The position numbers were made by a program, and so were the translations under genes. A model generated the notes under the pieces. It was not told the origin of the DNA, did no database searches, and saw only the letters and a program-made list of their open reading frames with translations. A stretch of DNA of 63,957 nucleotides, filler included, from Nemertoderma westbladi (taxonomy: Eukaryota > Animalia > Xenacoelomorpha), in NCBI GenBank assembly GCA_032718475.1. It is 3 parts of 3 records of this genome, joined end to end, with 100 filler letters (N's around TTAATTAATTAA, not from the genome) between each part and the next. Parts side by side here need not be neighbours in the genome. Positions count along the whole stretch, not along the records: positions 1 to 22,027 come from JAUCBJ010003012.1; 2 more parts are not named here. One strand, 5' to 3'. Shown one piece after another: positions 812 through 35,272 of the stretch (positions are counted from its first letter, which is position 1; each line of letters opens with the position of its first letter).

Positions 812-2153
812 AGGGCCCCCTGGACTGACAACAAAATTCAGAAGTGCCGAAATGACCTTCATAAGGCGCAGAAAGAGTCCCGACTCAAACAGACTACAGC
901 GGCCAAGAATGCAGTTAAGGCTGCATCTAGGTCCCTGAACAGGCAGTACTCTGTTAATCTACAGGAGCTAATAAACCAACAGGTTGATGCCATCAATGAT
1001 GCTGACGACAGCAGGCAATCATCCCAGGCATGGAAATCGATCAATCTGCTTACTGGGCGGAAAAGCCAACCAACCACCAAGGTTAAGGCTGAATCACCAG
1101 CCGATCGCCTCAATGATTGGAAAGCCCACTTTGAAAAGCTCCTCAATAATGACAGGGTATTGCCTGATAACTTTTATAGAAGTAAAAGTGTCTGAGTCTG
1201 TACTCCCAGATATTCCCATTGGCGATATCTCCTTTGCAGAAGTGAAGGCTGCTGCAAAGAGCATTAAGACCAATCGTGCCAGTGGAGTAGATGGTGTTCC
1301 CCCTGAGGTCTTTAAAATACCTGAGTGTTTAAAGCTCATCTATCCCATCATAGTAAACATGTACCGAACAACAAGAGTCCCACAAGAAATGAAAACAAAT
1401 AAGTTGGTGCCAGATCCCAAGAAGGGCAACCTAACACTCTATGGTTCTTTTCGGGGAATCTCATTGATCTCGATTGCTGCAAAGCTATACAATAGGATTC
1501 TATTAAATCGCATCAGGGATCCCATTGAGAGACTGCTCCGTGGAAATCAGAATGGGTTCCGTAAAGGTCGTGGGACCATGGAGCCCATTTTGGTACTTAG
1601 AAGGATAATTGAAGAATTATCAAAAAAGAAAGACAGGCATCTGGCTGTTATCTTTGTTGACTTCTTCAAGGCCTTTGATTCAGTCTCTCGCTCACGTATG
1701 TTCAGCATACTTTCATTATATGGGATTCCTGATGAAATTATTGCAGCAATCAGATCAGTATACGATGGTTCGACAACATTTGTGTCTACTGTTGACGGTG
1801 ACACAGAACCATTTGAAGTGTTATGGGGCATCCTCCAAGGAGACACACTTGCACCATTCTTGTTCATTATTGTGGTTGACTATGTTCTACGCATGTCCTT
1901 AGATCATCATAATGATGATGGGGTGATGATAACTCCACCTACTGGCTCCAGAAGTCTAGGAAATCCTGCCAAGTACCTAACTGATCTAGACTTTGCTGAT
2001 GACTTAGGAGTACTCTCAGAATCATTAGAGGGAGCCCAACGGCTCCTCAGCTCATTAGAACATGCTGCTTCTAGTTTTGGTCTTTTTATTAACTCCAGAA
2101 AGACAAAAATTATGACAGTTAACTTTGAAAGTCCTCAGCAAGTCGCTCTAATG
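812..2153 (+). pseudogene. RTE-clade non-LTR retrotransposon fragment (linker + RT), frameshifted near 1175 and 3'-truncated
   Basis: RT motifs PKKG, FRGISL, QNGFRKGR, FVDFFKAFDSV, GILQGDTLAPFLF, DLDFADD, INSRKTK. An upstream frame reads PWTDNKI...WKAHFEKLL. Confidence 0.9.
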
Positions 2154-3029
2154 TAGATCAATGGAGACATTGCCCTGGGACGATTAATCCAGCCGACATC
2201 GCCTCCAGAGGAGCAACTCCTCAAGAACTGATAGATACTCCAGACTGGTTAGGTGGACCCGACTTCTTAAGTAAAGAAGAGGATGAATGGCCTCCTCATC
2301 TTACCACGGCTGAGATTAGACAAGCCAAGGGAGTGGAGAAAGTCAAACCTAAAACCCGGACGAGTAAATCAAAGTTATTTAAACCCGTGATAGATCTGTC
2401 TGTACTACACATTTCCAGGGACGACGCTGTGGATCTAAAAAAATCTGTAGAATGCTGTAGAAATCGCCACCTATCTTAACGAGAGACCGTTTATGCCAGT
2501 CTCATCGAGTCCCGACTCCCTGGAAGCACTAACACCCGCGCATTTCCTACTAAAGAAACCTGTAGCCATGCTCCCACAATTGGAAATCACGGACGGAGAC
2601 GAATACTGCCGACAAACTTGGCAACTCATGCAGTTATTATCCCGTCGTTTCGCTGACCATTTCGAAAAACATTATTTGCCTACGCTACAACTTCGAACCA
2701 AGTGGTTTGCGCAGCAAGAAAACGTCAGCGCCGGAGACATGGTCCTTATTGTGGAATCAGATCTTCCACGAAAGCGGTGGCAGACAGGTCGTATCATCGA
2801 GACTCATATATCCGATGATGGTTTAGTGCGATCGGTAGAACTCGTCGTTATGCGACGTAACTTTAAGAAACCTGGAATTGTATTCGAAACACAACAACTC
2901 AATCGCCCAGTTGGTCGTTTATGTTTACTGGAAAGAGACAGAGAACTATCCGGAAACTATGGAAGGCAAGATACTCTTCCCACGACCACCTCCCTAATCC
3001 AACAAACATCTAGGGACTCCCCAACGTAA
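2146..3029 (+). pseudogene. pol: Pao-type pol remnant: RNase H C-terminus and integrase C-terminus, internally deleted
   Basis: QWRHCPGTINPADIASRG...WLGGPDFL, then LNERP...LTPAHFL...YLPTLQLRTKW...GDMVLI...WQTGRI...DGLVRSV...RPVGRLCLLE. These are BEL/Pao-type motifs. Confidence 0.9.
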
Positions 3030-4768
3030 CAGCGTCTGGAGTGGGTGTGTGACTATATGATTTTATATTTTTTTTATTATTTTTATATTTATGTATGTAA
3101 TATTATGTAATTTTATTATAATCATTTTCTTTAATTTTATTTAGTAGAACATTATTTTAGCGATTATTTAGTAGATTAGTGCAATATATATATATTCATG
3201 TTTATTACTTAATTACTTACCATTATATATTTAGTTTAACGGCGAGAAATAATTATTTTCTCTTTCCTTACTGTCCATATCATATTATAAATACGTGACT
3301 ACAGTAAGATGAAATGTCTGTACTTATTAAAGTACAAAATACCGCCCCTACTATACTCAAGTATTATCGGTAAGTAGAGTATTAGGAATGCAAAGTTCAG
3401 ATCCTCGTGTCTCAGCTAAACCAAGCTCTGGGTAGACCTTGGAAACGACTTGCCTCTTCTCACTGACATTGCTTCTTGCAATATTCCTCTCATACCGTAC
3501 ATTAAATAATACATATAGTAGCGTGATGTCCCTTTAACAGTAGCGTACCACGCAAAATAAATCTGTTAAACCCTTTGACCACCGGTAATTCTAGTCGATT
3601 AAGCCACCGATATACTTGAAAGACAAAATTCTAGAATCAGTGGTTAACGTCCCCAGACATGTTCTGGAATAAATAGGTGCCCATCTTAAATATTAAATAT
3701 TTAATAAATATTTATAAAATTCTATAAAATCTATTAAAACAAATGTTATAATAGAGTAATAGGCAGACAAATAAACTCTAAGGAGTTTGTAAACCAAGAA
3801 AATCTATAAATCCAAAATCTGTTAAAATTCAGATCCTTTAAAATTCTAGTCAATTAAGATATCGTAGCACTTACCGATACTCTTGAAAGGACAAATTTCC
3901 TAGAATCAAAGATCCCAGTCCCCAGACATGCTCTGGAATAAAATTGTGCCTATTTAATATTAAATAATAAAATTTACGGGAATAAATTTAAATTCATATC
4001 CTCTCATGAATTTGATAAATTGTTACTTTATACAATTTATAACATTCCCAAAATTCCATTAAATAATAGATCATGGGAGCGGAGATTCACCCTATTAAGT
4101 ATATTAGTGTGCGAGAATCTCCAATATATAGTCAATAGCCGATAAAATTCATAAAATCATGTATAAAGGGGAATATTGACAATTAAAGAATCACTATTAA
4201 ATAGCATCCCAGATCTGTATGCGTGAGAATTACCCTAATTCTACTGCTAGCTTTCCATAATGTCACCATAGCAACAACCACGCTAGAATTAGAAGCGAGT
4301 TAAAAGAACAATAGAAAGCTTGCCCCATTGAATAACATACGGAATAAATAGCGCACTACTAGTATCCAAGGATACATAATAATAACGTGGCATTCTTGAA
4401 GGCACTTGACTAATGGACAAATGGCCCGAATGTGTACAATTTGTGACAGTTGTGTGGAATTTGTGCATTTATAGGTGAATGTTACTACTATAGTGTGTTT
4501 ACAGTAGCGAGTTGCAGTTGTGAAAGTTGCCCTACCTCTGTAGTAAGAACCTGAAGTAATTCTAAGCCCTTGGGACGGACAGTGGAGTGACTCGCGCTGG
4601 TTATTGTTGTCGTTGTGTAGCTACTTACTACGTTGGCGAGAGGCACAGCGACGACAGTACATCAGCGCTGAGGATCTTGCGCTGTCCGGGGCCATTGAGG
4701 GGGAGGCAGCGACGACCGCTAGCCTAAATTATAATTAATTATAATATCGATAAACTCATATAGCAGCT

Positions 4769-6977
4769 ATGACTGAGTTGATAGAAAATGATCTTGGTAT
4801 CATGGAGCGATATACCCTACCATTGCAAGCGTTTGTTGATAGTTTAATACGTGGTGACGTTAGTCAACCCACTACGGAGGACGATGGCCGTTATATCGAA
4901 CCGCCAATGCCAAAGGAACAGCTCACGCGTGAATTGGACTATAGAAAATTCACCGCTCGCTATACGCATCGTAATGGTACATATATGGACTTCTTAACTA
5001 CTGGTCATCCTATCGATTTACATGACACGGACGATGTAGACACCGAAAGGGAAATGATCCTATTTAAATATCATACCCAGCGGAGTCGGAATGATAAACT
5101 GAGAATCGAACACGAAAATTCTATTTGAAACCAACTCGAAAGAGAAGACGTTGAAGAGCCGGATAAACGCAGTCACTTCAACGAATATCTGGAATTCTTG
5201 AGAGAAACATATCTCAATGTAGCCAGTCAACAAACAAAATCTAGAAACTCGATATCCTCAAGGTATACATCATGACCCTATGATAGAACTCAAACGACTC
5301 TATTTCACTATGATGTATCTTACCGCCGATCGACCGCTACCTATTGTACCGGATAGCTTCGAACAGATGGAGGAATATTGTAAAACTGGAGAAAGATCAC
5401 CCGCGTTTCCCCTACAAGACGTGCATCTTTGGTATTATTGCGATGAATGCCCTAGACCCAACCAACAAACGGAAAGACATAAACATCCGCGGAGACGTTG
5501 CGCCAAACACAGTTTTACTCGCTATACTTACGGGAGTTTCGAGCGAAACTTGTTCGATGTATCACCTACGCTCGCTCGACTCAAACGATCCTTAAATAAA
5601 CCGATGATCAGAGTTCCGGAATACTCGGTCAGACCTCCTCATTCCCTGGTGAGACCTCAGACTCTTGATCCTAATAGTATAACGGATCCTCCTGAACTGT
5701 ACTCACTGTTCAAAGATCTAGTGTTACCCAAACAATTAATCGGTGGCACTCCAGTAGTGGGATCTCTAGATATTCGCCCATCCTACCTAGCCGGATTGGG
5801 ACACGGACGTTTAATATCGCCGTTCAACCCGTATAATCGTCCCGGTTTAACCCCGATACAACCCGTCACCGAGGTGGAGGAGAGCGTTGTACGAAACGCG
5901 TTGGACGCTATTCGGCAAAAGATTGGAAAAGGAACTTACGATTGTTTAGATAAACGTAAATTGCAGCAGCAAGTCCAAGCGGTAAAAGAATTAGCTTTAC
6001 CTCAGTTCGATCGAGAAATCCAGAATCTCGAGGAGGACATCGAACTTGGACGAACCCACTCTCTACAAGAGTTTTTGGACGAACGCTTCCAACGACAAGC
6101 GGAGGAAAATTAGCTCGAGGAGAAGCATATAGAAATGGACGAGAGAGAAGAAGCAGCTTTAGCCCAGCCAGAAGCTCAAATCCTTATGACTGATCTCTAT
6201 TCCAAAACCGTTATTCACCCTTCAATGGTTCCCCATTTCGGAGACAAACTCTTCGCCACGGTACAACCCCAACCGGTTGATATCAACCTAAGATCTCGAG
6301 ATCTTATCGCTGATGCTCCTATGTTACAACGTCCACCAATCGAGACCGCTCGTGTCGACGGCATACTCGTTGAACCTCCGGACAATCGAGCGGATCTTGT
6401 CCGTCGTATGGTACACGAGGTCAACCTATGCGCTAGACCTTTTACCGAACTCATTTTATGGGATCAAAGACCACCCTTATTATGTCAATTTAACTCAATA
6501 TTATATGGTGAAACCGGAAGATCCTACATACAGTTTAAAGTTTCTACCATTGATAAATCACGCGGTGACTTGTTCATAAACTCGCATCCAGAGTTACAAG
6601 AAGTTCATAGACAACCATATGAATATAAAGCCAGAGAACGCGAGTTGGAAAGAACCATCAAACCGAGGAAATTTCTCACTACTCACGGTCAACCTACCGC
6701 TCTCGTGCAAACGACTCATCAGGGACCAGTAAGAGCTGCTGTCTTGAAACGCGCTCTAAAGGTTGTTCGACCTCGTTCCACTGAGGTTGATATCGATCAA
6801 CCGGGTACCTCGACCGGCGGATACACTGACCGTAACCCTAAACCTTCCGATGCAATTGTATTGCACCCCTCACCCAGGAGTTATAGCCCTCCTAGTAAAG
6901 TGGCTCGCCCCAAAGAGAAAAGGACTCTTGCTAGCCTCAAAAAACTTCGTAAACACCGTTCACGTAAGAAGGACTAA
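4769..6977 (+). pseudogene. Extra (cargo) ORF of the BEL family, type A, ~735 codons when reconstructed; unknown function
   Basis: The three ORF-track pieces join into one ORF. TGA 5126 is CGA and TAG 6111 is CAG in sister copies, and a 4-nt insertion near 5232 is absent in copy C. Confidence 0.8.
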
Positions 6978-7393
6978 TTGTTTAGAGTATTTTTATATTT
7001 TAGAAACTGTGATTTTTTATATTTTATAGAATTAAATCCCATTTTCTGGGAGCGGTGTAAAAGCTTTTGCGGACATAACAAGTCATTTTTCCCCGCAATG
7101 CGCAGTGTGGGTGCTTTGGCGGACGTGGTGGGTCGTTTTTGCCGCAGTGCGCATAATGCTCTAAAAGATTGGAGCTCAGATGACGAAATCTGTCAGCTGA
7201 TTTCCTGTAGACATGGAGCCTCTTTGTTCTGCTCAGCCAATCAGAGCGATTTTCACTTTATGTTGGACAGGGGCCTATGGAGGACCGCGCGGTGCGTTGC
7301 AGTTTTTGTTTGCCTTTCTGGGCCTCGGGGCCGGCTTGGAGTTCTTCTGGGCTTCCGTTTTGGAGGTTTCGGACTTTGGCCTGGGCATCTGAT

Positions 7394-7541
7394 TGTTAGA
7401 GGTATATTGTATAGGCCATGCCTTACAGGTGGAGGTTGGGGGGCAGCTCTAAGTATGTACCGGTAAGGTGATGATATATATATTTGTGTAGATTAAAGTA
7501 AAGTGTCAGACTTGTATGAACGTGTATTTCAGTATTTAACA
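7394..7541 (+). repeat. Copia 5' LTR (148 bp)
   Basis: TGTTAGA...TTTAACA; differs from the 3' LTR by one substitution and a 7-nt indel. Confidence 0.95.
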
Positions 7542-7559
7542 TGGTAGCAGAGCGTGGTT
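7542..7559 (+). promoter_or_regulatory. Copia primer-binding site, complementary to the 3' end of initiator tRNA-Met
   Basis: TGGTAGCAGAGCGTGGTT abuts the LTR; TGGTAGCAGAG is the PBS typical of GalEa elements. Confidence 0.9.
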
Positions 7560-7969
7560 GTACCGTTACCAAACAGATTTAGGCCTATTGAAAACTTATT
7601 TTAATATAGACATATTGGTGTTGCAAAGACAGAGATCGACTACCACCTACAGACTTTACTTAACTGTGTACTGCTGACTAGGGCTACAGCTGTACATGCT
7701 GTGCAGCAGTGCAGACAGGCCAGCAGGCTGACGTGCTGTGCCTGTTACCAGTATCCTATTATTACCACTGTCAGTACCGACACATCTGACCGTTGCGTTG
7801 ATCCATTTAATCTGTTCAGACAGGCAGACAGCCCCGTATTGGTATTGGTCATACGGGTCTGACGGTAGGCCTAGGCTTACAGGCCTATATCCAGATATCA
7901 TATTTACCGGTATTGCGGTACCTTACTGCTAAGGGTAACCGGTCTGTCGGTGCAAGAATCAAACGGACT

Positions 7970-10900
7970 ATGACTTCTGTAAAAGAGTTGACACCCCCTC
8001 TATTAGGGGAAAATGAAAATTATAGGGAATGGAAGAAGTTGGTCAATCTTTGGTGTCAACGCAGCAAGGCCCCAGGAAGACAGAAAGCAGGTGACATAAT
8101 TCTTTATTCACTTAAGGGAGAGGCCAGATCTTTAGCTCTTTCACTGGAAGAAGACCTATTGCAAGCAGATGGGCAAGCTGGAGTGGAATATCTGTTAAAA
8201 GAATTAGATAAACTTTTTGAAAAAGACCGTGATACCCAAGGATATGAAAATTGGAAGAAATTAATTAACTTTACAAGAGGTGAGCGTACTGTTCTAATGT
8301 ATTGTTCTGAATTTCGCAGATTGCGCAGAGAGGCAAAATTATTTAGTATAGATCTTTCAGATACTACGTTTGCCTATATGGTACTAGACAACTGTGGCTT
8401 ACCCAACAGTCAAAAATTATTACTACTATCAGTTGCTTTAAGTCAAACTGTGGCTGGTAGTGGGTTGAGTTCAGATAATGTGGAAACAGCACTACGTCGT
8501 ATTGATAGCAGTAGCAATAACAACATTACTACCGGTACTGATTTAGAGAATGCAGATGCATCAAATTCAAAATATACAAATAGCGTACTTGTAGCAGCAG
8601 GACAAGATGAACCATCACTTGAGTATGAATTATCTGAAATGGAAGTCAGTGAATGTGACACATCATCTTTCAATGATGTAGAGAAAGATGAATTAGTGCG
8701 CTATGCAATGACTACTTATAATACTGGAAAAATAAATCAAGGTGGTACGAAGTCATGCAATAGAAGCTGGCATCAATCGGTACAAGGTAGACCTCGAATG
8801 AATGCTAGAGACATCCAAACTAGTGAAATAATCAGATGCTATGGTTGTGGGTCGCGATTCCATCTATATAGGTCAGGAAATTGTCCCAAGAATATTGGTA
8901 GTAAAGGTTCATATAGATTTCACAATAATAATGTATGTAATAAAGGAAACAGTTTTCAAAGATATCATCCGATGGGTGAGGAAAATCTTTTTGTAGAGAG
9001 ACATGAGTCAATAGTTGAATCTCAAGAATCATATATTACTAACCAAAACGAAATAGATATTGAAAATGATTCAGTAGCGATAATCGATTCAGCTTGTACA
9101 TGTACAGTGTGTGGGACAACATTCTATACACAGTATCGTGATAATTTAAAAACGGCAACTGGTTTAGAACCATTAAGACAAGAAGATGGTGGTAAAGTAT
9201 ATCGTTTTGGAAATGATGGCGTTAAAATTAGTCTATTTAATGTTAGTTTACCAGTTTCAATTTTTGGCAAAGTTTATCATCTATCTTGTGATGTTGTTAG
9301 GGGAAATTGTCCACTTTTATTAAGCCGAACAGCACTTTCAAAGTTGGGTTTGATACTTGATTTTAAAAATAAGATGGCAACAATTGAAAATCAAAGTTTT
9401 AATCTTAAACAATCACAAAAGGGGCATTTTGTCATTCCATTGATAACAAATTGGCCAATGAACTCAATGCGTATGGTTGCAGATAAGCATAAAGTAACTG
9501 TTTCAGGAAATCAAACACCTAAAACGATCTCTTCTTCTTCAGCCAATATTGCAATATCGAATGGTGATTTGAGTATGCCATGTGATGATGTTGATAGTAA
9601 CATTCAAATAGAATTCTCTCATACTATTGGTGATAAATGTGAAGTTTACAGTGTATCTAGTAAGGATATAACAACAATGGAGCATAAAGTTCTAGCCAAG
9701 AGATTGCATATTAACCTAGGACATCCCTCTGAAGATAGGTTAATTAAAACAGTAAAAAGTTCATTGGACAATCGGAAAAACATACCGGTAATTAATGATA
9801 TTAACATTAGAGGTATTGTGTCAGCGATAAATGAAGTTTCCAGGCAATGTGAAATTTGTAAGGCAGGAAAACGGCATAATAATCGGCCAAAGGTGACAGT
9901 TGCCCACGCTGACAAGTTTAATGACACATTAGCTATGGATCTTTCGGATTGGGTTGACCCAGTAACGTCACGGACGTATACAATGTTGCATTTAATAGAT
10001 ATATATTCTAGGTTTTCTGCAGCTTGTTTTATGAAGAGTAAGGAAACTAAAGAAGTAATAGAGGGGATAGCACAAACTTGGCTGACTGTATTTGGTCCAC
10101 CTCAGAAAGTATATTCAGATAATGGTGGAGAGTTTCATTCTGTTGAATTAATGTGTTTTTACGAACGATTTGGAATTTACGTTGATACTACGGCAGCTGA
10201 ATCGCCTTTTTCAAATGGTATATGCGAAAGAAATAATGGTACACTTAAATCAATTATGACTAAAGTACGTAAGGATAACTTCAGCTGTTCTTTGAGTACT
10301 GTTCTTGGATACAGTTTATTAGCTAAAAATACTCTTATAGACAATCTTGGTTTTTCTCCATTTCAGCGTGTATTTGGCTCAAATCCTAGATTACCTGTTA
10401 TAACTTCTGAAATATTACCAATGATCAATGATTCTGAAAACTATCAGCGCATACGCCAACATTTAAATTTGTTGCATGAAACAAGGATGGCTTGTATTGG
10501 AGCTGAATGCGATGACAGAGTAAAGAGAGCACTAAAACAGAGAATAATTTCAAGTGATGGTCCTTTTGAGTCTGGTGATAATGTATGCTATTGGCGGGAT
10601 GAGAAGTCAAAAGCTGGAAGAGGTTGGCACAGTCCAGGAAAGGTTATTGGTCAGGATGGGTCAGTAGTTTTTCGTACGACATGGAGGATTTGTGATAAAT
10701 GTACATCAGCGTGATTTGAGAAGAATGAGTGATGAAGGCAAATTACTGAAGTTGAAAGCAATTGGTGGAAAACTTGTAGAAAATGAGAGTGAAACCAGAA
10801 ACATAGAAGGAAACAACAAAAGTTCATTGTTAAACATGATTACTCCAAATACAACAATTGGTATTAATCAATCTCCGTTATCTACAGTCAAGCAGTTAAG

Positions 10901-12575
10901 TAGTATTGCTATGGACACATCTAATAATAATATTAGCATAAATAACACTGGAGCTCTAGATGATAAAATGGATAAAAGTGGGTCTCTAGAAAGGCCACAC
11001 CGTAACCCTAAACCAATTGTAAGATATGGAATAGATGAGGTTTATGAACTATCTGATAGTTATATAACTACTGCTGAAAATAATAGTAAACGATTTGCAT
11101 ATGCAAAGGAAGATGAACTAATTTCTTGGCAACAACACGGCGTAATGAAGGAGGTTAAAGAAGAAGACATGACTAATCAGCCAATCTCTTGCAAGTGGGT
11201 ATTAACGGAAAAACAAGGAGCTACAGGATCAATAAGGTTAAAGGCAAGACTTGTAGCTCGTGGTTTCCAGGAGAACAAGTTGGATTTACAAACATACTCC
11301 CCAACATCCCACAGGGATACTCTCAAGCTCATTCTTGCTATTTTTCCATCACTTTGTTTTAGACCTCATTCCCTAGATGTTAAAACTGCTTTTTTGCAAA
11401 GTAAATCATTTGAACGAGATGTTTTTGTCGTTCCTCCACCTGAGGCTCATCTTTCTCCTAATATTTTTTGGAAATTGCTTAAACCAGTATATGGCTTGGT
11501 TGATGCTCCTAGAAACTGGTTTAATAGTTTATCAGAGGCACTTGTTAATCTTGGATTAAAGAAAAGTGACCTGGATCCCTCGTTGTTTGTGTATATAGTG
11601 AATGGTGAAATACATGGTTTAGTAACCATTCATGTAGATGATCTGTTGTATGGTGGTACAACTATATTCCATACAAAAATAATCAATAAATTAAAAGAAA
11701 TCTTTGTGGTAGCACCTTCAAAGAAAGACAATTTTGAGTATACCGGACTAGTGATAAATACAATTGACAGTGTTGATAACTCATTTAACATTCATGTACT
11801 TACAAAAGATGAATATTTAATGAAAATGGGTTTCATGGCTGTTCGGAAGGGAGAATTAGACTGCCCAATGTCAAAGGACGAAATAACAGAATTTCGCTCC
11901 ATTCTCGGTGTTCTTCAATGGGTTGGTTCACAAACACGTCCTGACATAATGTATGGAACATCTACATTATTGGGATCATTGAGAAATCCATTGGTAAAGC
12001 ATATTCAACAACTTAATAAGTTAATTCGCAAAGCAAAGTCATTGCAGCCAATTAAACTTGTATATCGGCCGTTAGATTTAAAGACATTATCTCTGATTAT
12101 TTATTCTGATTGTAGCTTTGGAGCCTTAAATGATGGGGGAAGTCAAGGGGGATTCATTGTTGGTCTCCATGGTCGATTAAGGAATTACGATGAGGTTAGA
12201 GTTAATACGTTAATGTGGAAGTCAAAACGTGTACAACGAGTAGTACGTTCTAGTTTTGCAGGGGAAACTCTTGCTGCACTTGACGGGTGCGATGCTGCGA
12301 TATACATAAAAGCCATGTTGCATGAACTCACATTGAAAATTGACTTTATGAAACTTCTGACAGACTCTAAAAGCTTAGTGGATCACATCTTATACACAAA
12401 GAATGATCCTGCAGAAAAGAAGTTAAAGATTGACCTAGCAATACTCCGTGAAGAAGCATTACAGGGACTAAGTGTTCAACATGTAACTGGAAAGAAACAA
12501 GCAGCTGATGTCCTAACAAAGGAGATGCCTGGTGAACAAATTTTAAATCTAATAACTGATGGAATTATTGAATAA
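7970..12575 (+). CDS. gag-pol: Copia Gag-Pol polyprotein with one extra T near 10670
   Basis: Knuckle CYGCGSRFH, protease IIDSAC, integrase LHINLGH...CEIC and SDNGGEF...NGICER, RT KARLVARGF / YGLVDAPRNWF / HVDD, RNase H TDSKSL / ADVLTK. Removing one T from the T5 run restores VFVRHGGFVINVH. Confidence 0.88.
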
Positions 12576-12695
12576 AAAAAAAATAATAATAATAAATAAA
12601 TGGAAAGGGGAATATTAGTCTATACTAGAATTTCATAAATGTGTGGTGGAGGTATTTTATGTATATAACTAACATATTAATTAAAGTAGAGTGAG

Positions 12696-12850
12696 TGTTA
12701 GAGGTATATTGTATAGGCCATGCCTTACAGGTGGAGGTCGGGGGGCAGCTCTAAGTATGTACCGGTAAGGTGATGATATATATATTTGTGTAGATTAAAG
12801 TAAAGTGTCAGACTTGTATGAACGTGTGTCGTGTATTTCAGTATTTAACA
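12696..12850 (+). repeat. Copia 3' LTR (155 bp)
   Basis: Direct repeat of 7394-7541, followed by TSD CTGAT. Confidence 0.95.
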
Positions 12851-13799
12851 CTGATGGTTTTGATTATAAGAACGTAAATCTATTATCTGACCTGGATCAC
12901 CGACATGCTGACTGACGAACTGAACACTGCATAATATAAACTGCATGAACCGGCTTGGAATTACATTGTTTAACACATACATTATTTTACTTCTGTTATT
13001 AATTGTTGTCATATTGATGTATATTGCTGATATATTTGGAGAATACCGATGAATAATCATAAAACCCCCAATCTTCTTGATTACTGAAGGTGAGAGGAAC
13101 AGGTTACCGGTAGCAACTGCGACTTACATTATAGTGGTTTTTGTGTGAATTAAATGCTACTTCATAATCCCTACAAGTGTCAGTTGCGATCTTCCTTATT
13201 TATATATGATCAAATTCAGTGACGGTCGGCAGATCAGTGTGCAGTAGTGTGAAGTCGTGTGAAGTAGTGTGAAAGATAATAAAGCATCTCCTAAAGAATG
13301 CGCTATTTACGAAACTCAGTAGCCATCTAGTTGTGATTAGTATAAGTCATAACTCTGTTTTTATACTTAAAGCGCCACGTCCTAAAGGAACTGTTAATAT
13401 TTCCCCGAAAGTAAATATATTTGTCAGAGATTATATAGTAACGATCAATCGAATAATACATATAGGTCTGCACCGCAATAACTTCAAAGCACCCGAATCC
13501 AGTCTCCCTTAACTGTGGGTGAATGATCGCGCACAGACTGGCTTCGGCGGATGTAACTTCAGTACAATAAATAATTGATATAGGCTAAAGTCGATTTATA
13601 AACAAGAGGACAACTAAAATTGGCAGGTTAAACTGCTAAAGGTCTAAAAGCGCGAACAGTTAATTAAATTACGAAAAAGTAAATTAATCAATCAAATAAG
13701 AATAATTAAAATATAAAACATATTTGCCCCATTCCGCAAGCTGAAACTTGTCAGATATGTGATAGAACACAATCCTGTGTCATTGTGGGGTCGGTAGTC

Positions 13800-17630: not shown

Positions 17631-18815
17631 TGTTCGCGCTTTTGAAGACCTTTAGCAGTTTAACCTGCCAAAATTTATATGTCTTTTAGTTAATTAAAAC
17701 ACCTTTAGCATACGACAATATTTTATGCTAATAAACAAAACATTAACCGAAGCCAGCCCATGCGCGATCATTCACCCGATGGATCTACACCCGGGAGGCT
17801 GAATTCGGCTGCTTAAATTTTATTATTGCAGTGTAAGGTTGCAGTGTAAACCTATTGTATTATTCGATAGATCGTTAATAATTAATTTCTGACAGATATT
17901 ATTTGCTTTCGGGAAATATTAACAGTTCCTTTAGGACGTGGCGCTCTATCTATTTAAACAGAACTAGGACTTATACTAAACGCAACGATACCGCTTAGGA
18001 TTAAAGTATAAGGCACATTCTTTAGGAAATGCTTTGTTACCAATCACAATCATGCACACTATTCTGCCGACCGTCAGTAAATTTGATCACACATAAAGAG
18101 AGCAGCAATTGACTCATGTAGGGTCTGCTAAATAACATTAGATTCAATACACACCACATTAATATAAATCGCAATTGTTATGTATAGCCTGTCTCTCTAA
18201 CCTGTAGTGTATCAAGAAAATTTGGAATTTTGGGTGATTTATCCGTATTCTCCAAAGAGCAATATTTCCTCAACAAATCGATACAATTAATAACTGACGG
18301 TAAATAACAGTACAAACAATATAATTAATAAGTAAAGTTCGGGAGAATTATATGATTAATAACAGTTATACTTTCGATAATTTAAGCAGTTTTACTAGAG
18401 TTCTTCCCAAAAGCCGGTGTTATGGCGAAAAATGGGAACACAACAACAGAATCATATGAAGAATCATATGACTACATAACTATACGAGGATACCAACTAC
18501 CCTTATTCCCCGAAGCTCCCGTCCAACACAGAGGATGAGCAGTGAGATAGGAAAATTCAGTTCAGTAGCTCTGGGATAGGTCAAAATCCACGCCCACTCA
18601 AATTCTATTGGCCGATACGGACAGCAAGGCTGAGGCAACCTCCCTAAGCTGGTTGGCCGATTAAACGGAGCCCAGATACCTTCGTACAGCACATCAGCCA
18701 ATAAGCTGGTAGCTTGCACTATTTTAACTATAGATCCCTTTTAGAGTATTCTAGCGACCGGGGGGGAACTGGCCAGCAAGGCAAACGAATCAGTTATCCC
18801 ACAAAAGCTTTTACA
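17631..18815 (-). repeat. 3' LTR of BEL copy B (1185 bp)
   Basis: Plus strand reads TGTTCGCGCTTTT...AAAAGCTTTTACA, the reverse complement of the family termini. Confidence 0.92.
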
Positions 18816-18893
18816 CCGCTCCCAGAAAATGGGATTTAAGTCTATAAAATATACAAAATCACAGTTTCTAAAATATAAAAATACTCTAAACAG

Positions 18894-20343
18894 TTAGTCT
18901 TTCTTGCGCGGACGGCGTTTACGAGGTTTTTTAAGGCTAGCAAGAGTCCTTTTCTCTTTGGGGCGAGCCACTTTACAAGGAGGGCTATAACTCCTGGGTG
19001 AAGGGTGCAATATGATTGCATCAGAAGGTATGGGATTACGATCGGTATATCCGCCGGTCGAAGTACCGGGTTGATTGACATCAACGTCCGGGGAGAGGGG
19101 TCTAACGGCTTTGAGAGCTCGTTTCAAGACAGCCGCTCTTACGGGTCCTTTACGAGTGGTCTGAACGAGGGCCGTGGGTGGACCATAGGCAGTTAGAAAC
19201 TTCCTTGGTTTAATGGTTCTTTCCAACTCGCGTTCGCGGGCTCGGTACTCGTAAGGCCGTCGATATACTTCCTGTAACTCGGGGTGTGAGTTGACAAATA
19301 AGTCTCCATAGGCAGGATCTTGACGGATAAAGTTTATTAAGTTGTAAGAATTTATGTCACTCGGATTAATGCTCCTGAGAAATTTGCGTACATATTTGGT
19401 TGAAATACATTCTCCAACGCGCTTCAGTAGTTCATAACTTGATAGGCGTGATTTCTGCTCGACGGAGGCAAACAAATAAGGATGGAACGCATAAACTCCT
19501 TCGTAAGCGCGTCCAGGGTAATAGCGATGGCGCGAATCACAATGTAAATCAGCGTTCGCTTCCCAAGCTCTGATGTAACGTAGTGTGATCGTTTCATTTA
19601 CGCCTTCCAAATCGTGACTAAAAAGGGCAATCGAAACTGGCGCGTCCCTTTAGTTGACAATGGTGACATTGAGTCATAAATTGAGGGCAAACCGCAAAAA
19701 TGTGCAAGTTATTGAGTCTGTAATACGCGCAATAAATTTCCATCGTTGGTTGTTCGTGGAAATAGGAACAGCGGACGTTTGTGTCCATGGGCGTAACATG
19801 GTCTCTCGATGCGCATAACCGACAACGTTGCCGAGAAACATAGTTGGCATGGCGATAATCGTACGCAGTGAGACACTGTGGACCTTGATACCATTCTAGG
19901 AGGTAATCGTTGTCGTTGTTCCGGGCGCGATAGGCTGAATCTCCTCAGATTCTAGGCATATTGGTTCGTCTTCCCAGTCTGTTACGAATATAATTTTCGT
20001 GATCTATTCTCGGTTTATCGTTACGACTCCGCTGGGTATGATATTTAAATAGAACCATTTCCCTTTCGGTGTATACATCGTCCGTATCATGTAAATCGAT
20101 AGGATGGCCGGTAGTTAGGAAGTTCATATACGTACCATTACGATGCGTATAGCGAGCGGTTAATTTTCGATAGTCCAATTCACGCGTAAGTTGCTCTTGG
20201 GACATCGGCGGTTCGATATAACGACCATCGTCCTCCGTAATAGTCGGATCGGCTTCACCGCGTATCAAGCTATCCACAAACGCTTGTAAAGGTAGAGTAT
20301 ATCGCTCTCTAATACCAAGGTCATCTTCTATCAATTCCGTCAT
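18894..20343 (-). pseudogene. Extra ORF type B (~483 codons reconstructed) with a central triple Cys/His knuckle region
   Basis: Ends are homologous to type A. The frame stays open past TGA 19945-19947 down to ~19621, then a 1-nt shift joins the 18894-19610 ORF. Confidence 0.78.
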
Positions 20344-22027
20344 ATCTGCTATCTGAGTTTATTAATATCAGTATGAGTTAATATTTAGGCAAGCGGGCGT
20401 CGCTGCCTACTAGTCTTTGCCCCCGGACAGTGGGTTTCTCAGCGCCGATGTACCGTTGTCGCGGTGTTTACGCCAACATGTAGCAACAGCACGACAACGA
20501 TAACCGGCACAAGTCCCACCACTGTCCGTCCCAAAAGCTTGAATCCACTTGAGGTTATCTCGGTAGAGTTAGGGCTACTTTACAATTGCGATTAGCTACT
20601 GTAAACACACTTTAGTAGTAACATTCACCTATAAACGCACAAATTCCATACAATCATTACTTACTGCACACATGCAGGCCATTTGTTCGTCAGTCAGTGT
20701 CTTCCAGAATGTCACGTTATTACTATGTATCCTTGGATACTAATAGTGCGCTATGTATCCTCTTAGGCTACGCAATGGGGCAAGCCTTTTATTGTTCCTT
20801 TAACTTGCTTCTAATTCTAGCGTGGGTGTTGCCATGGTGACATTATGGAAAACTAGCGGTAGAATTAGGGTAATTCTCATGCATACAGATCTGGGATGTT
20901 ATTTAATAGTAATTCTTTAGTTGTCAATATCCTCTTTATGCATGATTTTATAAATTTTATCGGCTATTGACTATATGTTGGAGATTCTCGCACTCTAGTA
21001 CACTCAATATGAATCTCCGCTCCCATGATCTATTAATTACTGGAATTTTGGGAATGTTATAAATTGCACAAAATGACAATTTATGAAATTCATTTGAATA
21101 TGAACTTAAATTTATTCCCGTGAATTTTATTATTTGATGTTAAATTGACAAAAATTTTATTCCAGAGCATATCTGGGGACTTAGGATCCTTAATTCTATA
21201 AAATAGTCCTTCTAAGAATATCGGTAAATACTGCGATATCTTAATTGACTAGAAATTTTAAAGGATCGGGATTTTATAGATTTTAATAAATATTAAATTA
21301 ATATTTAGGATGAGCACCGATTTATTCCAGAACTTGTCTGGGGACGTTAACCACTGATTCTAGAATTTGTCTTTCAAGTATATCGGTGGGTGCCACGATA
21401 TCTTAATCGACTAGAATTACAGATGGTCAAAAAGTTTAACAGATTTATTTGCGATTTACGCTACTGTTAGAGGGACATCACGCTACTATATGTATTATTT
21501 GTTATAAGGTAGAAGAGCAATATCGCACGAAGCAATGTCAGTGTGAAGGGGCAAGTCGTTTCCAAGGTCTACCCAGAGCTTGGTTTAGCCGAGACACGAG
21601 GATCTGAACTTTGCATTCCTAATACTCTGCCTACCAATAATACTTAAATATAGTAGTGGCTTTATTGTACTTTAATAAGTACTGACATGTCATCTTACTA
21701 TAGTCTCGCATTTATAATATAATACGGACAGTAAGGAAAGAGAAAAATAATTATTTCTTGCCGTCGCACTAAATATATTGTAAGTAATTAAATACGTAAT
21801 AAACACTAATATATTGCACTAATTTACTAAATATTCTAAAATAACATTCTACTAAATAAAATTAAAGAAAACGATTATAATAAAATTACATAATAATACA
21901 TACATAAATATAAAATAAAAACAAATATAAAATGATATAGTCACACGCCCACTCCATATGTTATTACGTTATGGAGTCCCTAGATATTTGTCGGATTAGG
22001 GAAGTGGTCGTAGGAAGAGTATCTTGC

Positions 22028-25599: not shown

Positions 25600-26650
25600 T
25601 GCTACTACTAGGATCGGCATGCTGCATTGCAGCTGCATTTTTAAGAATGCTGTGCGGGCTTATCGACAAAATTGCACCGCCACAACTCCCTATCACCCAT
25701 GACATTAGCTAGATCATCCGCATCTTCAAGGCCAGTGTCCTTTAAGATGCGTCTCAAGAAAGTCATGGGCTGTCCACCATGCTTATTCAATCCATGAGGC
25801 TGCCAAAGTACAAGATTATGCACTGGCTGGTCCTCACGACGAAAGCAATGTCCTGCAAAGCGGAGGCGATTTTGTTCTAGTGTCAAGCTTGGGGGAACCA
25901 ATGAGAAACCTCCAATGTTATATAGTGTCTGGTTGGAGATGTGTGCATTGTACTTGATACAATGAACCCGGCGTAGCATTCTTGTGAATGTGCCATCCAG
26001 AGATTTGGTGTCCTCAGCAGTTAGAGCCCAGCATGGACTCCTATAGAGGAGTACTGGAACTACTGCTGCTCTAAATAATCGGACCTTAAGTTTCCGATTA
26101 ATTCTCGGTGACTTCCAAATTCTGGAAAGCCTATTCAAGGCTGCCCATGCCTTTCCCTTACGTACCGGTATTCGAAGGTCCTCACCTGACTTCCGGATCC
26201 ATGATCCCAGGTAACAGAAGTCATCCACATGCTCAAGCATACCATCTTTTGAGCTTATGCTCATCCGATCAGAGACTTGCTGAGGACTTTCAAAGTTAAC
26301 TGTCAAAATTTTGGTCTTTCTGGAGTTAATAAAAAGACTAATACTACTAGAAGCAGCATGTTCTAATGAGCTGAGGAGCCGTTGGGCTCCCTCTAGTGAT
26401 TCTGAGAGTACTCCTAAGTCATCAGCAAAGTCTAGATCAGGATTTGGCAGGATTTCCTCGACTTCTGGAGCCAGTACAGCAGTAGGTGGAGTTATCATCA
26501 CCCCATCATCATTATGATGATCTAAGGACATGCGTAAAACATAGTCAACATCAACAACAATTACGAACAAGAATGGTGCAAGTGTGTCTCCCTGGAAGAC
26601 GCCCCATAACACTTCAAATGGTTCTGTGTCACCGTCAACAGTAGACACAA
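25600..26650 (-). pseudogene. RTE LINE 3' portion (same family as 812-2153)
   Basis: GVFQGDTLAPFLF, DFADD, FCYLGS, RLRFAGHCFR, DRELWR. Short 3' UTR ending in (TAG)n-like repeats. Confidence 0.9.
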
Positions 26651-26687
26651 TCATGACATTCTCCTACATAAATTGAGATGCATTGGC

Positions 26688-27843
26688 TGTAAAAGCTTTT
26701 GTGGGATATAACTGGCCCTTTTGCTTCACAATCCAGTTTCCCTCAATGCGCTCAAATACTCTAAAGAAAAACTCCCTAACTCAAATGATGCAAGCTACCG
26801 GCTGATTGGCTGATTTGCTGTACGTATGGCCTCTTTGTTCTGTTCGATCAACCAACCAGAGCAAGGTCAACCAAGCAGAGTGATTCATCCTGTGTGTTGG
26901 CTAAGGGCTGCAAAAACCCGAATAGTTCGGCATTTAGACATTCGTGGAATCTGTGGAATATGGAGCTCTGCCAATGAGAGCTTTTCCTCTTTGTGTTGAA
27001 AGCTACCTGCAACAGCTCACAGGGTTCAGTGTGTTGGTTTTTCCAGAGCCTAGAACATCGGCTATGAAATTATTCTGAATTATTCCAACATTAGAACGGC
27101 TTTACACATAAAGAACACATAACTGTTACCAGTACGGTACGGTACCTACTGCTGTATTGCACATTATTTACTGCTATTTACTGTTTGTTATTAATTGTAT
27201 CAGTTGTTTACATATTGTTATTTGGAGAATAACGATAAACGATCAGAAACCCCGATCTTCTTGATACACTAAGGTTAGAGAGACCGGTTACATATAGCAA
27301 TTGCGACTTATATTATCATGGTTTGTAGTGAATTGAATGCTATTTTATAGGCCCTACAAATGTCGGTTGCTATTCTCTTTATATATGATTAAAATCAGTG
27401 ACTATCGGCAATTCAGTGTGCAGCGGTGTGCAATAGTCTGTATGTGCTTGTCCGCGTAACAAAGCATCTACTAAAGAATGCGCCTTATGTGTAACTTATA
27501 ATCCATTCCGTTGTGTTTAGTGTAAGCCATAGCTCTGTTTATATAGATAGAGCGCCACGTCCTAAAGGAACTGCTAATATTTCCCGAAAGTGAATGATAT
27601 TTGTCAGGAATTATATTAACGATCAATCGAATAGTACAGTAGGCCTGCACCGCAATCAAATTAAAGCATCCGAATCCAGTCTCCCGGGTATATCCAGCGG
27701 GTGAATGGTCGCGCATAGACTGGCTTCGGCTAATGTTGGATTTATTTGTGTCAAATACTTGTCATAGGTTAAAGTCGATTTATAACCTAGAAGACATATA
27801 GATTTGGCGGGTTAAACTGCCAAAGGTCTTAAAAGCGCGAACA
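26688..27843 (+). repeat. 5' LTR of BEL copy C (1156 bp)
   Basis: TG...CA termini; direct repeat of 38531-39694. Confidence 0.96.
27119..27129 (+). promoter_or_regulatory. Putative transcript 5' end / self-primer (ATAACTGTTAC)
   Basis: Exact reverse complement of 27844-27854. Starts at the A of a C-A dinucleotide (YR initiator-like). The TSS assignment is inferred. Confidence 0.7.
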
Positions 27844-27854
27844 GTAACAGTTAT
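27844..27854 (+). promoter_or_regulatory. Non-tRNA primer-binding site (GTAACAGTTAT)
   Basis: Abuts the LTR, lacks TGG, and is complementary to 27119-27129. Confidence 0.75.
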
Positions 27855-28187
27855 TAACTCTGATTGCAGTGTAGGCAATAAATACAGTTTACTATTGTTC
27901 TGGTAAGAACAATAACAGATATAGCTTCTGTATTGCAGTAGGCAATAAAGCTGAAGTACCGGTTAACCGGTACCTAGTAGGCCTGACTACCTAACCACCC
28001 GGACCGGTACCTACAGCAGTACAGGTACAGCAGTGTTATTCGAATGTGAAATTGTATACCGGTAGGCTGTTTAAGAGATTAGGGACTGTACACCCCTTGT
28101 TTCTTTTGGAGCTTACTTATTTCTGTCAGTTTTATTTACTTGTAGGTTAATATTGAGCAGAAGACGTGTAAGCCTGCCCAGATTGTA

Positions 28188-28768
28188 CAGACAATTTGTA
28201 GGCTGGACTGTTGTCTGACTGTTGTTAAGTCTGAAGGGACTGTAGTGTGTGTAGAGCGTATGTCCGAAAAAGTACTAGTTAGGAAAGTAGGGGCTGCCAG
28301 TGCTGTGAGGTGAACCCCCTCGAAAGAATAAGTCGTACTACTCGGTTAGAACGCATACTAACTAACCATTTCGGAGTCTGCATATACTGTAGTTTATTTA
28401 GGCTTGATAGTAGTCTGCCAGCGTTTGGTCTGTATTTTGTATGTGTAGTCTGTACGGGTAGCGTAATATTTATTACTTAGATAATTTGTAGGCTGGATTT
28501 TGTCTGGCTGTTGTTAGGTCTGAAGAGATTTCGGTATGTGTAGAGTGTATGTCCGATAAAGTGCCAGTTGGGAACGTAGGGGCTTCCAGAGCTGTGAGGT
28601 AAACCCCCTCGAAAGAATAAGTCGTACTACTCGGTTAGAACGCATACTAACTAACCATTTCGGAGTGTGCATATACCGTAGTTTGTTTAGGCTTGATAGT
28701 AGTCTGTCAGTATTTGGTCTGCATTTTGTTTGAGTAGTCTGTACGCGTAGCGTAATATTTATTATTCA
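28188..28768. repeat. Tandem duplication (~290-bp unit x2) in the BEL 5' leader; also at ~47104-47678
   Basis: AGAYAATTTGTAGGCTG...GTAGCGTAATATTTATT is repeated in both copies C and D. Confidence 0.85.
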
Positions 28769-29162
28769 GAGTTTATGTGATTATTCGCAACCTTCATATA
28801 TCCCCAAGTTTATTCCTACAGTAATTGTGCTTGTTATATATACCGTTATAGTTAAACTAACCCCGGTACTACATCAGGGCTGCTTGGCGTAGGTAAAGAC
28901 TGGTGATTTTGTGCCCCGGTCACTCCAGCAGATACCGTGGTTCTTTTAGCTGTTCAAGTATTTTTAACTACTGATTATTTGTTGTATAAGTACTTGTACC
29001 TAATTTAGGGTTTAGTGTACAGTACTTTCCGAAGGTGATTAGTGTGTGGGCAGTATATTTGTGTTGTAAAGTGGTTAATAGGCACGTTGGTTCTGGTAGA
29101 CCGCGGTAATTAACTTCTAGGTAGGAACACTCCGTGATACATAACGTGGTACTTATAGCGAT

Positions 29163-29501
29163 AGTACGAATTTTTACGGTAATTTTACAAGAAGTCTACA
29201 AACCAGCCTAACAAAGGGTTAGAATATCTGGTTATTACAAAGGACAGGGTACTACGGTATTTGAAAATAATAAGTAGTAGTAAATATACTGCGTTGTCCA
29301 GATAGGAAAAATACCACCGTCTGACAACGCTATAAGTCGTCAGACGGTGGTATTTTTCCTATCTGGACAACGCAGTATATTTACTACTACTTATTATTTT
29401 CAAATACCGTAGTACCCTGTCCTTTGTAATAACCAGATATTCTAACCCTTTGTTAGGCTGGTTTGTAGACTTCTTGTAAAATTACCCTAAAAATTCGTAC
29501 T
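29163..29501. repeat. Near-perfect inverted repeat (~163-bp arms, 13-nt spacer)
   Basis: 29163-29325 is the reverse complement of 29339-29501, with one mismatch seen. Copy D has only one arm. Confidence 0.95.
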
Positions 29502-29714
29502 TGTAATTTTTGTGTTTATTTAGAGATTGTAATCTCACCCGAATTGTATGTAATTTGTAGTATTAAGTAACTTAGGTAAATTAGAATTATTTGTTTTAGT
29601 GTCCAACAAGTAGCACTCCACTGAGAGCGCACAGCTTCTGTGTAGTGACTTCCCCCAGAAATAATAACATTTATTTCAAATATTGACAAAAACCCATTTT
29701 AACGGGTATATATA

Positions 29715-30024
29715 CTAGAGACGGCGTCAAGATGCCGTTAAGCAAGTCGGAAGTCATCAATCAAATGTAAATTCCATCAACAAGCTGTCATTGGTGTTAT
29801 TTTACCATTGCGCCTATGGCGTTTTTTTCATTTATGTCTATTTTTCGAGCCCACGGCTCATGGACGAAATAGCGGAACATACCAGGGACCTTAGAATCGT
29901 GGTATCTAGCCGCTGTGAAAATTTCATCAAAATCGTTAGAGTAGTTTTGGCTGTAGATCAGTCAGTCAGCCAGCCAGCCAGTCAGCCAACAATTCTTACA
30001 GTAATCAAGTCCTACGACTTGCTA
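29715..30024 (-). mobile_element. Small HINE/DINE-like non-autonomous rolling-circle element
   Basis: Absent from copy D. CTAG terminus next to hairpin GACGGCGTC-AA-GATGCCGTT. Subterminal IR AGCAAGTCG/CGACTTGCT. Internal (CAGY)n microsatellite. Confidence 0.7.
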
Positions 30025-30698
30025 ATTATAAATCAACTCAAACCGATTTATAAAATAGTAGGCCTGTCTTACAACAATTAGGTCAAAATATCAGTTGGAC
30101 TACTGCTTAAATAACGGTAATCAAGAAAAGCAAAGTAACCAAGTAACCCCTAAAATTTCAGAAATTCAATTATTCTAAAATAATTGACATACCGGTATTT
30201 ACCATAGGCTTATTATATTTATTTCTATAAATTTAGGCTAAATTATATACCGGTATTCTGTAATTAATTCTAGTCTGTAATTATACTTCTATATATACAT
30301 TATAAGTGTAAGCTGTATACCGGTATTCACGATAGGCCTATTATATATTTATAAATTTAGGCTGAAATTATACCGGTATTCTGTAATTAATTCTAGTTAA
30401 TAATTATACTTATATATACTATAAGTGTAAGCTGTATACCAGTATTCACGATAGGCCTATTATATATATTTATATATTTGTGCTAAAATTATATACTGGT
30501 ATTCTGTGACAAATCTAGTCTGTGACAATACTTATATATATATATTATAAGCATACCGGTATTCTAATATATTATATATATATTACGCTACACTGAGTAG
30601 CAGTATCGGTAATTAATTACTAAGCTAACAGTGATACTGAATTACTAGACTTGCTTAAACTGTAATAGAGCAGTAGGCATTCAACTGTACAAACAAAC

Positions 30699-33600: not shown

Positions 33601-35272
33601 ACGACGGCGAAAGCCAGGCTTCTCAAGAGGAAGACAGCGGGAAAGACACTGAAAGATCTTACTATGACAACAAAGCGCCTAAGGACGTAAGTAAATTCAA
33701 GTCTCGAACCAATGACAGGAGAGAACAGGTAAGAAAAACTCCTCCTACGTCTCCTAAGAGAATTCATGTAAGAAAGCCCGAAGAAAGAACGAGTGTGCAC
33801 AACGTTACTCAAAGTAAGGTAAGTAACATCAAACCAAAATGTGTGCTGTGCGACGGGCCCCCCGTTTAAGTGCGTGTGATGAATTCCTGAGGAAATCACT
33901 AAAGGACAGACGTGAAGTCATGTGGGATAAGCGGTTGTGTTATAATTGCCTCAGACGAGGACACCAACGGCGAACCTGTTACTCCGACGCAAGGTGTGCA
34001 AAGTGCGGCGCAAAACATCATATCTTGTTGCACACTGAATTCGATCGAAACAGCCCGAGTCAGGTAAGTGAGTCCGAACTACATGTCCAATTCAGTGATG
34101 TGAACGACACTGACCAAAGTTCTGAGATTGAAGGATTCTATACGGACGAATTCTCCGACGAAGATGAATCCTGTTACATGATAAATACCGCAGTGTATCG
34201 AGCACTTACGTATGAAAAAGATACAAACAGCGAGCTCACCCTAACTACTTCTGATCGACAACCATCTTGGAAAGCACCAACTTCCAATGTAGGAATCCGA
34301 GAATTTCCCGTAGTGCAGTTAAGGGTCCACGGACCTAAAAGGAGTTATATAGTGAACGCCCTCCTTGACTCCGGTAGCACAGGAACATTCATCGACAAAG
34401 AACTAGCCGAAGACATCTTTGCTGGACAACCCAAGTTCCGAACTAAGTTAATCATGTCAGGAATTATGCAGGTTTGGAAATCTACAGTAATAGCGGATTA
34501 TTATGTAGGTGCGTTGTCCACCCCCCAGGATGAACTAGGAGAACATAGTATAAGGTCAGTAAAAATGGTGGCGATAAAGAACTTCGCTACCAGCCAAGTA
34601 GAACCTTATAACTGGGATGAGGACGATTCCACCCAGCAGCTTAATGTACCTAGATTCAACACAGATTACCCTGGAGTGCAAATACTCATCGGCCAAAATG
34701 CGCATGAAGCGCTTGAGACATTGGAGAAACGGCCTGCTCAACCGCAACCATTACAAGTCTATGCGGGAAGAACTAGAGTGGGTTGGTACTTTACTGGCCC
34801 TTCCCGTAGAACTCTCATGGAAAGATTACCGAAAGAACAGGTATATCAATTAAGTGAACGGGCAGTGGAGAGCAGTGAAGTTGACAACCCAACTGAGGGA
34901 ACACCATACTCCTCAGATAATGACGATATCAACTCCAATGTAGATCAATGGAGACATTGCCCCGAGACGATTAATCTAGCCGACATCGCTTCCAGAGGAG
35001 CAACTCCTCAAGAACTGATAGACACTCCAGCGTGGTTAGGTGGACCTGACTTCCTAAGTAAAGAAGATGAATGGCCGCCTCCTCATCTTACCCCGGCTAA
35101 GATTAGACAGACCAAGGGAGCGGAGAAAGTAACACAACAACTCAATCGCCCAGCTGGTCGTTTATGTTTACTGGAAAGAAACCGAAAACTGTCCGGAAAC
35201 TATGGAAAGCAAGATACTCTTCCCACGACCACCTCCCTAATCCAACAAATATCTAGGGACTCCATAACGTAA
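30699..35272 (+). pseudogene. gag-pol: BEL/Pao gag-protease fused to RNase H and integrase tail remnants; in-frame TGA at 31692, 1-nt frameshift near 33860, RT deleted
   Basis: Gag core KFNGDEMKWLPF...EKLRFLIECLEG...WDTLNIRYG. Three knuckles: CVLC, CYNCLRRGHQRRTC, CAKCGAKHHILLH. Protease ALLDSGS. Then QWRHCP..NLADIASRG and RPAGRLCLLE. Confidence 0.9.

Follow-up and report, generated by a model that had tools for sequence, protein, structure and literature searches.

A non-Env extra gene that evolved under purifying selection in atypical, putatively self-priming Bel/Pao elements of Nemertoderma westbladi

Bel/Pao elements (Belpaoviridae, Semotivirus) form an LTR superfamily whose replication is poorly understood; they are assumed to be tRNA-primed, with a primer site of 18 nt that in the ICTV profile is complementary to the 3' end of tRNA-Arg or tRNA-Gly, and to carry a third gene that is at most env-like (PMC8742986). 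Orphan extra ORFs are common, and one found alone is an ordinary finding. The accessible text of a plant survey counts 45 + 314 unrelated groups, 21.4% of them with a known domain (PMC6317226), and the accessible text of a rotifer study describes ORF3 types that vary (PMC5408684). The extra ORF described here has no match in Pfam to the known-domain ones among them, and it differs from those cases, as far as they are described there, in having an exchanged middle between two ends that are kept.

The closest animal comparator is CERV of the C. elegans element Cer1, described in the accessible text as a lineage-restricted, non-Env, Cys-rich nuclear protein that is expressed by splicing, encoded at the same position, and needed for export of genomic RNA (PMC10309623). 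The present gene shares its position and its non-Env character with CERV, but Cer1 is a Gypsy/Ty3 element of another superfamily, CERV includes a G-protein-like domain and has exons in common with gag, and no sequence or fold links the two. Splicing and export are shown for CERV, whereas here they are postulated. A second point of comparison is the tRNA-free priming of Tf1/sushi-type elements and of plant Tcn1 and TAR: here, too, the bases directly after the 5' LTR (11-12 in this family) exactly complement a site in the same LTR, but those are Gypsy or Copia and this family is Bel/Pao. No report of self-priming or of a non-Env third gene in Bel/Pao appears in the accessible text of the literature searched, which included PMC5443660, PMC3601003, PMC3118150, PMC11952523, PMC554778, PMC5341516, and PMC8556966; Repbase, GyDB, supplements, and older Cer papers lay outside that search and may contain such cases.

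An atypical Bel/Pao family

The window, meaning the whole stretch of 63,957 nt that was analysed, consists of three N-joined contigs (1-22027, 22128-49846, and 49947-63957) and is full of eukaryotic repeats. The LTR element family is represented by the following copies and parts.

2146-13658 (+): copy A of the LTR element, cut by a LINE at 2146
2146-3029 (+): Bel/Pao pol remnant of A, the end of the RNase H region followed by the integrase C-terminus with DUF5641, without the integrase core
7056-13658 (+): 3' LTR of A, with a purine tract just before it, split by a Copia insertion (7394-12850)
17631-22027 (-): copy B of the LTR element, reaching the contig end
17631-18815 (-): 3' LTR of B
26688-39694 (+): element C, 13,007 nt from LTR to LTR, with a TTGGC target duplication
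30699-35272 (+): gag-protease of C, with DUF1759, zinc knuckles, and aspartic protease; broken, and fused to short pol remnants
44564-45545 (-): fragment E of an A-type extra ORF, 94% identical to A and interrupted by the insertion of element D
45546-49846 (+): element D, with 5' LTR (45546-46784), leader, and the start of gag, truncated by the contig end

Pfam recognizes DUF1759 in gag (E 1e-11) and DUF5641 at the end of pol (E 1e-21), and the remnants map in order (protease, RNase H, integrase) on a complete Bel/Pao polyprotein, with no RT of this element in the window. The gag-protease matches four Bel/Pao polyproteins, two of which are full-length matches at 27% identity and one of which belongs to an Acropora coral cluster; these matches suggest a marine invertebrate host. 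The LTRs are 1156-1239 nt long, that of D slightly over the family range of 0.2-1.2 kb, and have TG..CA ends; A, B, and C have the same purine tract. The DUF1759 gag, the DUF5641 integrase end, the domain order, and the 5-bp target duplication are thus those of Bel/Pao, but copy C, despite its loss of RT and integrase, measures 13.0 kb, as against 4.2-10 kb in the ICTV profile, a tRNA-type primer site is absent, and the third gene is not env-like (PMC8742986). The element is therefore filed as an atypical variant of the Bel/Pao lineage, not as a typical member. The family is abundant, with 16,162 contigs from one DNA run, possibly the window's own source, matching the extra ORF region.

Several insertions and rearrangements lie within these copies. 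A near-complete Copia element is nested in the 3' LTR of A at 7394-12850, with a CTGAT target duplication, a gag-pol in two overlapping frames (7811-10714 and 10668-12575), and a TGG-type primer site that is presumably initiator-Met-like. The leader of C holds a 340-nt near-perfect palindrome at 29163-29501 (arms of 166 nt, 99%), which is mostly missing in D and is likely a MITE or foldback insertion. Within the 5' leader of ~2.9 kb, C (28189-28770) and D (47104-47682) have in common a 289-nt tandem duplication.

Structure, constraint, and relatives of the extra gene

The extra ORF is in sense orientation between the Bel/Pao pol remnant and the 3' LTR, and it exists in two types that have the same ends and different middles.

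4769-6977 (+): extra ORF of copy A, from an ATG at 4769 to a stop ending at 6977; 2209 nt, ~735 codons
4769-5143 (+): N-terminal module of ~125 aa, common to A, B, and C, with 83-84% aa identity between A and B
5439-5510 (+): C-x2-C-x16-C-x2-H motif (CDEC..CAKH) in the A-type middle, a possible zinc finger with putative metal binding; also in C
5865-6149 (+): helical, coiled-coil-like stretch of the A-type middle
6552-6974 (+): C-terminal module of ~140 aa, common to A and B at 83% identity, ending in a basic tail
6939-6974 (+): basic tail, in A, B, and C
18894-20343 (-): extra ORF of B type, with the common ends around an unrelated Cys/His-rich middle (~19320-19970); broken near 19946 and 19620
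36930-38452 (+): extra ORF of copy C, 1523 nt, with five stops, three frameshifts, and a ~680 nt deletion near 38290

All five copies in the window are broken or partial. A sequence-only reading had reconstructed one protein of ~735 aa from copies A, B, C, and fragment E. That length holds for A, whose frame is interrupted at three places (stops at 5126-5128 and 6111-6113, and a frameshift near 5230); it does not hold for B, which spans 1450 nt and has another middle, and C retains only a broken 1523 nt. None of the three breaks of A is found in C, and the stop at 5126-5128 is missing in nearly all sequencing-run contigs that cover it. Contigs of two sequencing runs contain a deletion of the same net size as that of C. 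The smaller features claimed in that reading stood up better. The CDEC..CAKH motif is present in A and retained in C. The coiled-coil-like stretch is helical and corresponds to residues 215-309 of the frame starting at 5223, the sole part that AlphaFold modelled with any confidence (block means of 50-84 pLDDT, vs 25-44 elsewhere). The basic tail of A, B, and C is more basic than shuffled sequence, its value being reached in 26/2000 shuffles for A and 11/2000 for B.

The B-type ORF has its ~125 N-terminal and ~140 C-terminal residues in common with A (83-84% identity), and its middle, which the sequence-only reading had missed, matches neither A (best E 0.77) nor any other part of the window. 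Loose ends of contigs in two sequencing runs diverge from A at the place where B diverges, so B-type copies other than this one exist. The nearest resemblance of the B middle is to CCHC zinc knuckles, a lead only, with an Atlas value of 0.86 (lead threshold 0.9) and 13.4 bits against the Pfam CCHC zinc knuckle (cut-off 27; E 0.07).

The extra ORF is a real gene that evolved under purifying selection and is now broken. Its dN/dS is 0.34 for A/C, 0.14 and 0.09 for the N-terminal and C-terminal modules of A/B, and 0.12 for A/E; neutral evolution simulated with the same transition bias, in 500 runs per comparison, gave means of 0.68-0.82, and in none of the four comparisons was the observed value reached (0/500 each). 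The ratio is therefore not near 1 between subfamilies, which was the check that the sequence-only reading had proposed. For the N-terminal module of B vs C it is 0.23, and gag compared between C and D gives 0.25. Shifted frames of the extra ORF return 0.78-2.16, and removal of CpG sites leaves the values nearly unchanged. Differences by codon position are 50/33/69 for A/C, 12/9/35 and 15/9/52 for the two ends of A/B, and 15/4/38 for A/E; in the sequencing runs, third positions make up 23 of the 40 listed variant sites, these being the best 40 of 558.

Two unalignable middles between strongly conserved ends could also mark an arms-race cassette, in a counter-defence protein that blocks the piRNA or RNA-decay machinery of the host, and the high abundance reached by the family would suit such a protein. 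This explanation is improbable, as the A-type middle evolved under purifying selection (A/E 0.12; 0.41 for the A/C middle) with no sign of positive selection, and the searches found no host-like domain.

The protein was earlier said to be non-Env, of an unknown family, and without an obvious signal peptide or transmembrane segment, and these statements are supported. By hydropathy alone, the largest 19-residue value over five ORF pieces is 0.46-1.05, and the usual membrane threshold is ~1.6; a 584-aa stretch has no N-glycosylation sequon. No match past cut-off for the extra ORF appeared in Pfam, PHROGs, or PDB sequence searches, none to any known fusogen was found, and sequence searches gave no homology to CERV or Rev. 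A word-indexed search with the 584-aa stretch found no relative among 7997 candidates, the 212 longer proteins compared with the N-terminal 241 aa of B included none (weak evidence), and 5.8 billion clusters held no credible relative. HMMER against 1.84 billion representatives, a search that left out the first 150 residues of A and the last 250 of B, likewise gave no credible relative; its sole match, a cyanobacterial Calx-beta repeat protein, was rejected because its score was the sum over six weak repeats. The Atlas offered no usable match for 5223-6110. Structure prediction, which had been recommended together with Foldseek, was informative only for the helical stretch: the AlphaFold models were poor overall (pLDDT 38 and 30), and the Foldseek matches to the predicted model, with TM-scores near 0.1, were discarded as meaningless. 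Metagenome and viral contig scans returned no related locus. Three stretches in the viral contig scan did encode a relative; should they derive from the window's own record, repeat DNA of an animal may have been filed as viral.

The lack of both a hydrophobic segment and a credible relative argues that the extra ORF is not Env. A degenerate Env or fusogen, or a useless captured fragment of host or foreign DNA, would sit well with the breakage of every copy in the window and with the usual env position (PMC8742986), but this view is largely refuted by purifying selection across subfamilies, the missing hydrophobic segment, and the missing host homologue.

The fate of the gene can be followed best in element C. 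Aligned with a complete Bel/Pao polyprotein, C has one gap between residues 612 and 1174 and another after 1221, so that RT, integrase, and most of RNase H are missing. Copy A jumps from 1230 to 1624, with the integrase core missing. RT loss is demonstrated for C only, being masked in A by the LINE joined at 2146 and in B by the contig end. The two LTRs of C differ at 14/1155 sites, and together with the TTGGC duplication they indicate that C transposed as a unit. Its extra ORF carries five stops, compared with ~0.5 expected from LTR age (P ~2e-4, at a rough nonsense rate of 6%), so the ORF was likely already dead before the last jump. The earlier suggestion that the gene was kept in elements that lost RT is thus not supported, since the only proven RT-less copy probably carried it along broken. 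Because C moved as a unit with a broken ORF, the gene was likely selected in autonomous lineages outside the window and is likely dispensable in cis. The LINE junction of A (2146) lies within ~10 nt of where the RT deletion of C ends (~34930), either by coincidence or through shared history.

The spacer and possible functions of the product

Upstream of the extra ORF lies a spacer whose reported conservation over 1.7 kb was confirmed, at 1.62-1.74 kb and 88-92% identity between copies.

3030-4768 (+): non-coding pol-to-ORF spacer, more conserved than the four-fold sites of the ORF
3586-3935 (+): two related hairpin-forming units in the spacer (~3586-3680 and ~3841-3935), weakly supported
4761-4766 (+): TAGCAG, a candidate splice acceptor two bases 5' of the ATG, identical in A, B, and C, with an AT-rich stretch upstream

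Between A and B the spacer differs at 12% of sites, vs 34-41% at four-fold sites of the ORF, and between A and C at 8.5%, vs 14%. The 5' leader likewise exceeds gag third positions in conservation, though more mildly than the spacer does, so the conservation of the spacer is not special. No stop-free stretch with a start codon kept in all three spacers stood out, and Rfam gave no match at gathering score and one chance match within the spacer. Three of six hand-picked hairpin units have z below -2.5, and compensatory change was seen in 0/24 pairs of the spacer hairpins. The TAGCAG is without a pyrimidine tract, and TATA-like words occur 30-60 nt upstream of the ATG; they fit an internal promoter as well as TAGCAG fits a splice acceptor. 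One sequencing run, guessed to be RNA and possibly DNA, covers 30/30 bins of the ORF region at low depth and was given no weight as evidence.

That the product might be a nuclear accessory protein, as first proposed, is suggested by the basic tail and the Cys/His motifs. By analogy with CERV and Rev, the reading preferred here, tentatively and with a probability of roughly 0.4, is a trans-acting RNA-binding protein that works in the nucleus, is translated from a spliced RNA, and would export unspliced genomic RNA. An RNA joined at TAGCAG before the ATG would provide the ORF mRNA, the basic tail could mediate nuclear import, the zinc motifs may bind RNA, and the RNA target might lie within the conserved spacer. 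The protein would act in trans on the genomic RNA of the element, a mode suggested by the copies with a broken ORF that still transposed. The knuckle-like middle of B, the basicity of the tail beyond shuffles, purifying selection, and the conserved spacer all speak for the export reading. Against it, no homology or fold links the ORF protein to CERV, Rev, or others, and basic tails and zinc motifs equally suit DNA binding; NES-like patterns are at chance level (8 vs 7.2 expected).

The protein could instead be a transcriptional transactivator or an anti-silencing protein, expressed from an internal promoter in the spacer and binding LTR or chromatin, for which foamy-virus Tas-like and VANC-like proteins are comparators. 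The basic tail, the C-x2-C..C-x2-H motif, and the TATA-like words are compatible with this, and the U3 parts of the LTRs diverge strongly between the subfamilies whose ORF middles are exchanged, as would be expected of a middle that determines specificity. In plant Retand elements, extra ORFs that bind DNA have been proposed, according to the accessible text of PMC11963269. Such a role is possible and yet somewhat unlikely: no DNA-binding family was matched, the B middle resembles CCHC knuckles (a lead only), which usually bind RNA, and the copies are too few to compare ORF type with LTR type.

If the export reading is true, a non-Env gene that was under selection and whose zinc module can be exchanged would stand next to CERV as the second animal case of retrovirus-like regulation in an LTR element.

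Putative self-priming and other repeats

The absence of a tRNA-type primer site, also missed in the sequence-only reading, is matched by exact complements between the 5' LTR and the sequence that follows it.

27119-27129 (+): putative self-primer in the 5' LTR of C, exact complement of 27844-27854 (12/20000 shuffles)
27844-27854 (+): putative primer-binding site of C, directly 3' of the LTR
46011-46022 (+): putative self-primer in the 5' LTR of D, exact complement of 46785-46796 (8/20000 shuffles)
46785-46796 (+): putative primer-binding site of D, directly 3' of the LTR

TGG is absent from the 40 nt after either 5' LTR (0/2), and the nested Copia, which served as control, has it. A published in-silico criterion, in the accessible text of PMC6317226, asks for a complement that begins 0-5 bp past the LTR and is no shorter than 10 bp, and the Tf1 primer is described as using 11 bases in the accessible text of PMC7175516. 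The complements of C and D, at 11 and 12 bp directly after the LTR, fall within that criterion and suit the Tf1 geometry, and three non-5' LTR ends on the + strand have complements of only 4-6 bp. The two primer pairs differ at 4/11 positions and each shows 2-3 mismatches against the LTR of the other element, and when the stretch between primer region and site is folded, the two pair with each other in C and in D alike. These comparisons draw on just two testable 5' LTRs, whose sites MAFFT placed in different columns; D also has a two-mismatch match to the site of C, 17 nt downstream of its own. A TATA-like word stands only ~8 nt upstream, a spacing closer than is usual for a start site. On this sequence evidence, the element probably primes reverse transcription from its own RNA and not from a host tRNA. 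Of all the features in the window this signature is probably the most novel; if it is genuine, a self-priming Bel/Pao element would mean that priming without a tRNA arose independently in a third LTR superfamily.

Self-priming bears on one further explanation of the extra gene, a nucleocapsid-like RNA chaperone that aids packaging of the long genomic RNA or its folding, the self-priming duplex included. Putative primer pairs spanning ~730-780 nt, an element of >13 kb, and the knuckle-like motifs of B would give such a chaperone work to do, but Gag has knuckles of its own, the A type has none, and Tf1 is described as self-priming by RNA structure and RNase H alone in the accessible text of PMC7175516, so that this role is very unlikely. 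Returning to the export reading, its combination with the other features would yield a giant Bel/Pao lineage (~16 kb, as extrapolated from the missing parts of C) that switched independently to Tf1-style self-priming and resembles a complex retrovirus in its behaviour. Its Rev/CERV-like regulator, of a new protein family, would act on the conserved spacer RNA and exchange its zinc-finger middle between subfamilies as a cassette, and deletion derivatives would ride in trans. Taken as a whole, this scenario is rather doubtful.

Other repeats are found elsewhere in the window. LINE fragments with RT and endonuclease and one MULE transposase fragment lie at 785-2156, 25641-26663, 43694-44476, and 58438-59384. 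A 791-codon RT-like ORF at 51364-53739 (-), in which Pfam found no RT and whose end is presumably GIY-YIG-like, is located inside 50326-56649, flanked by 961-nt inverted repeats of 99.6% identity; the interval is likely a young element of Penelope-like type, bounded by inverted terminal repeats. Tandem arrays at 60849-61329 (30-nt units), 62860-63255 (21-nt units), and 40913-42047 (~57-60-nt units) give rise to spurious long ORFs.
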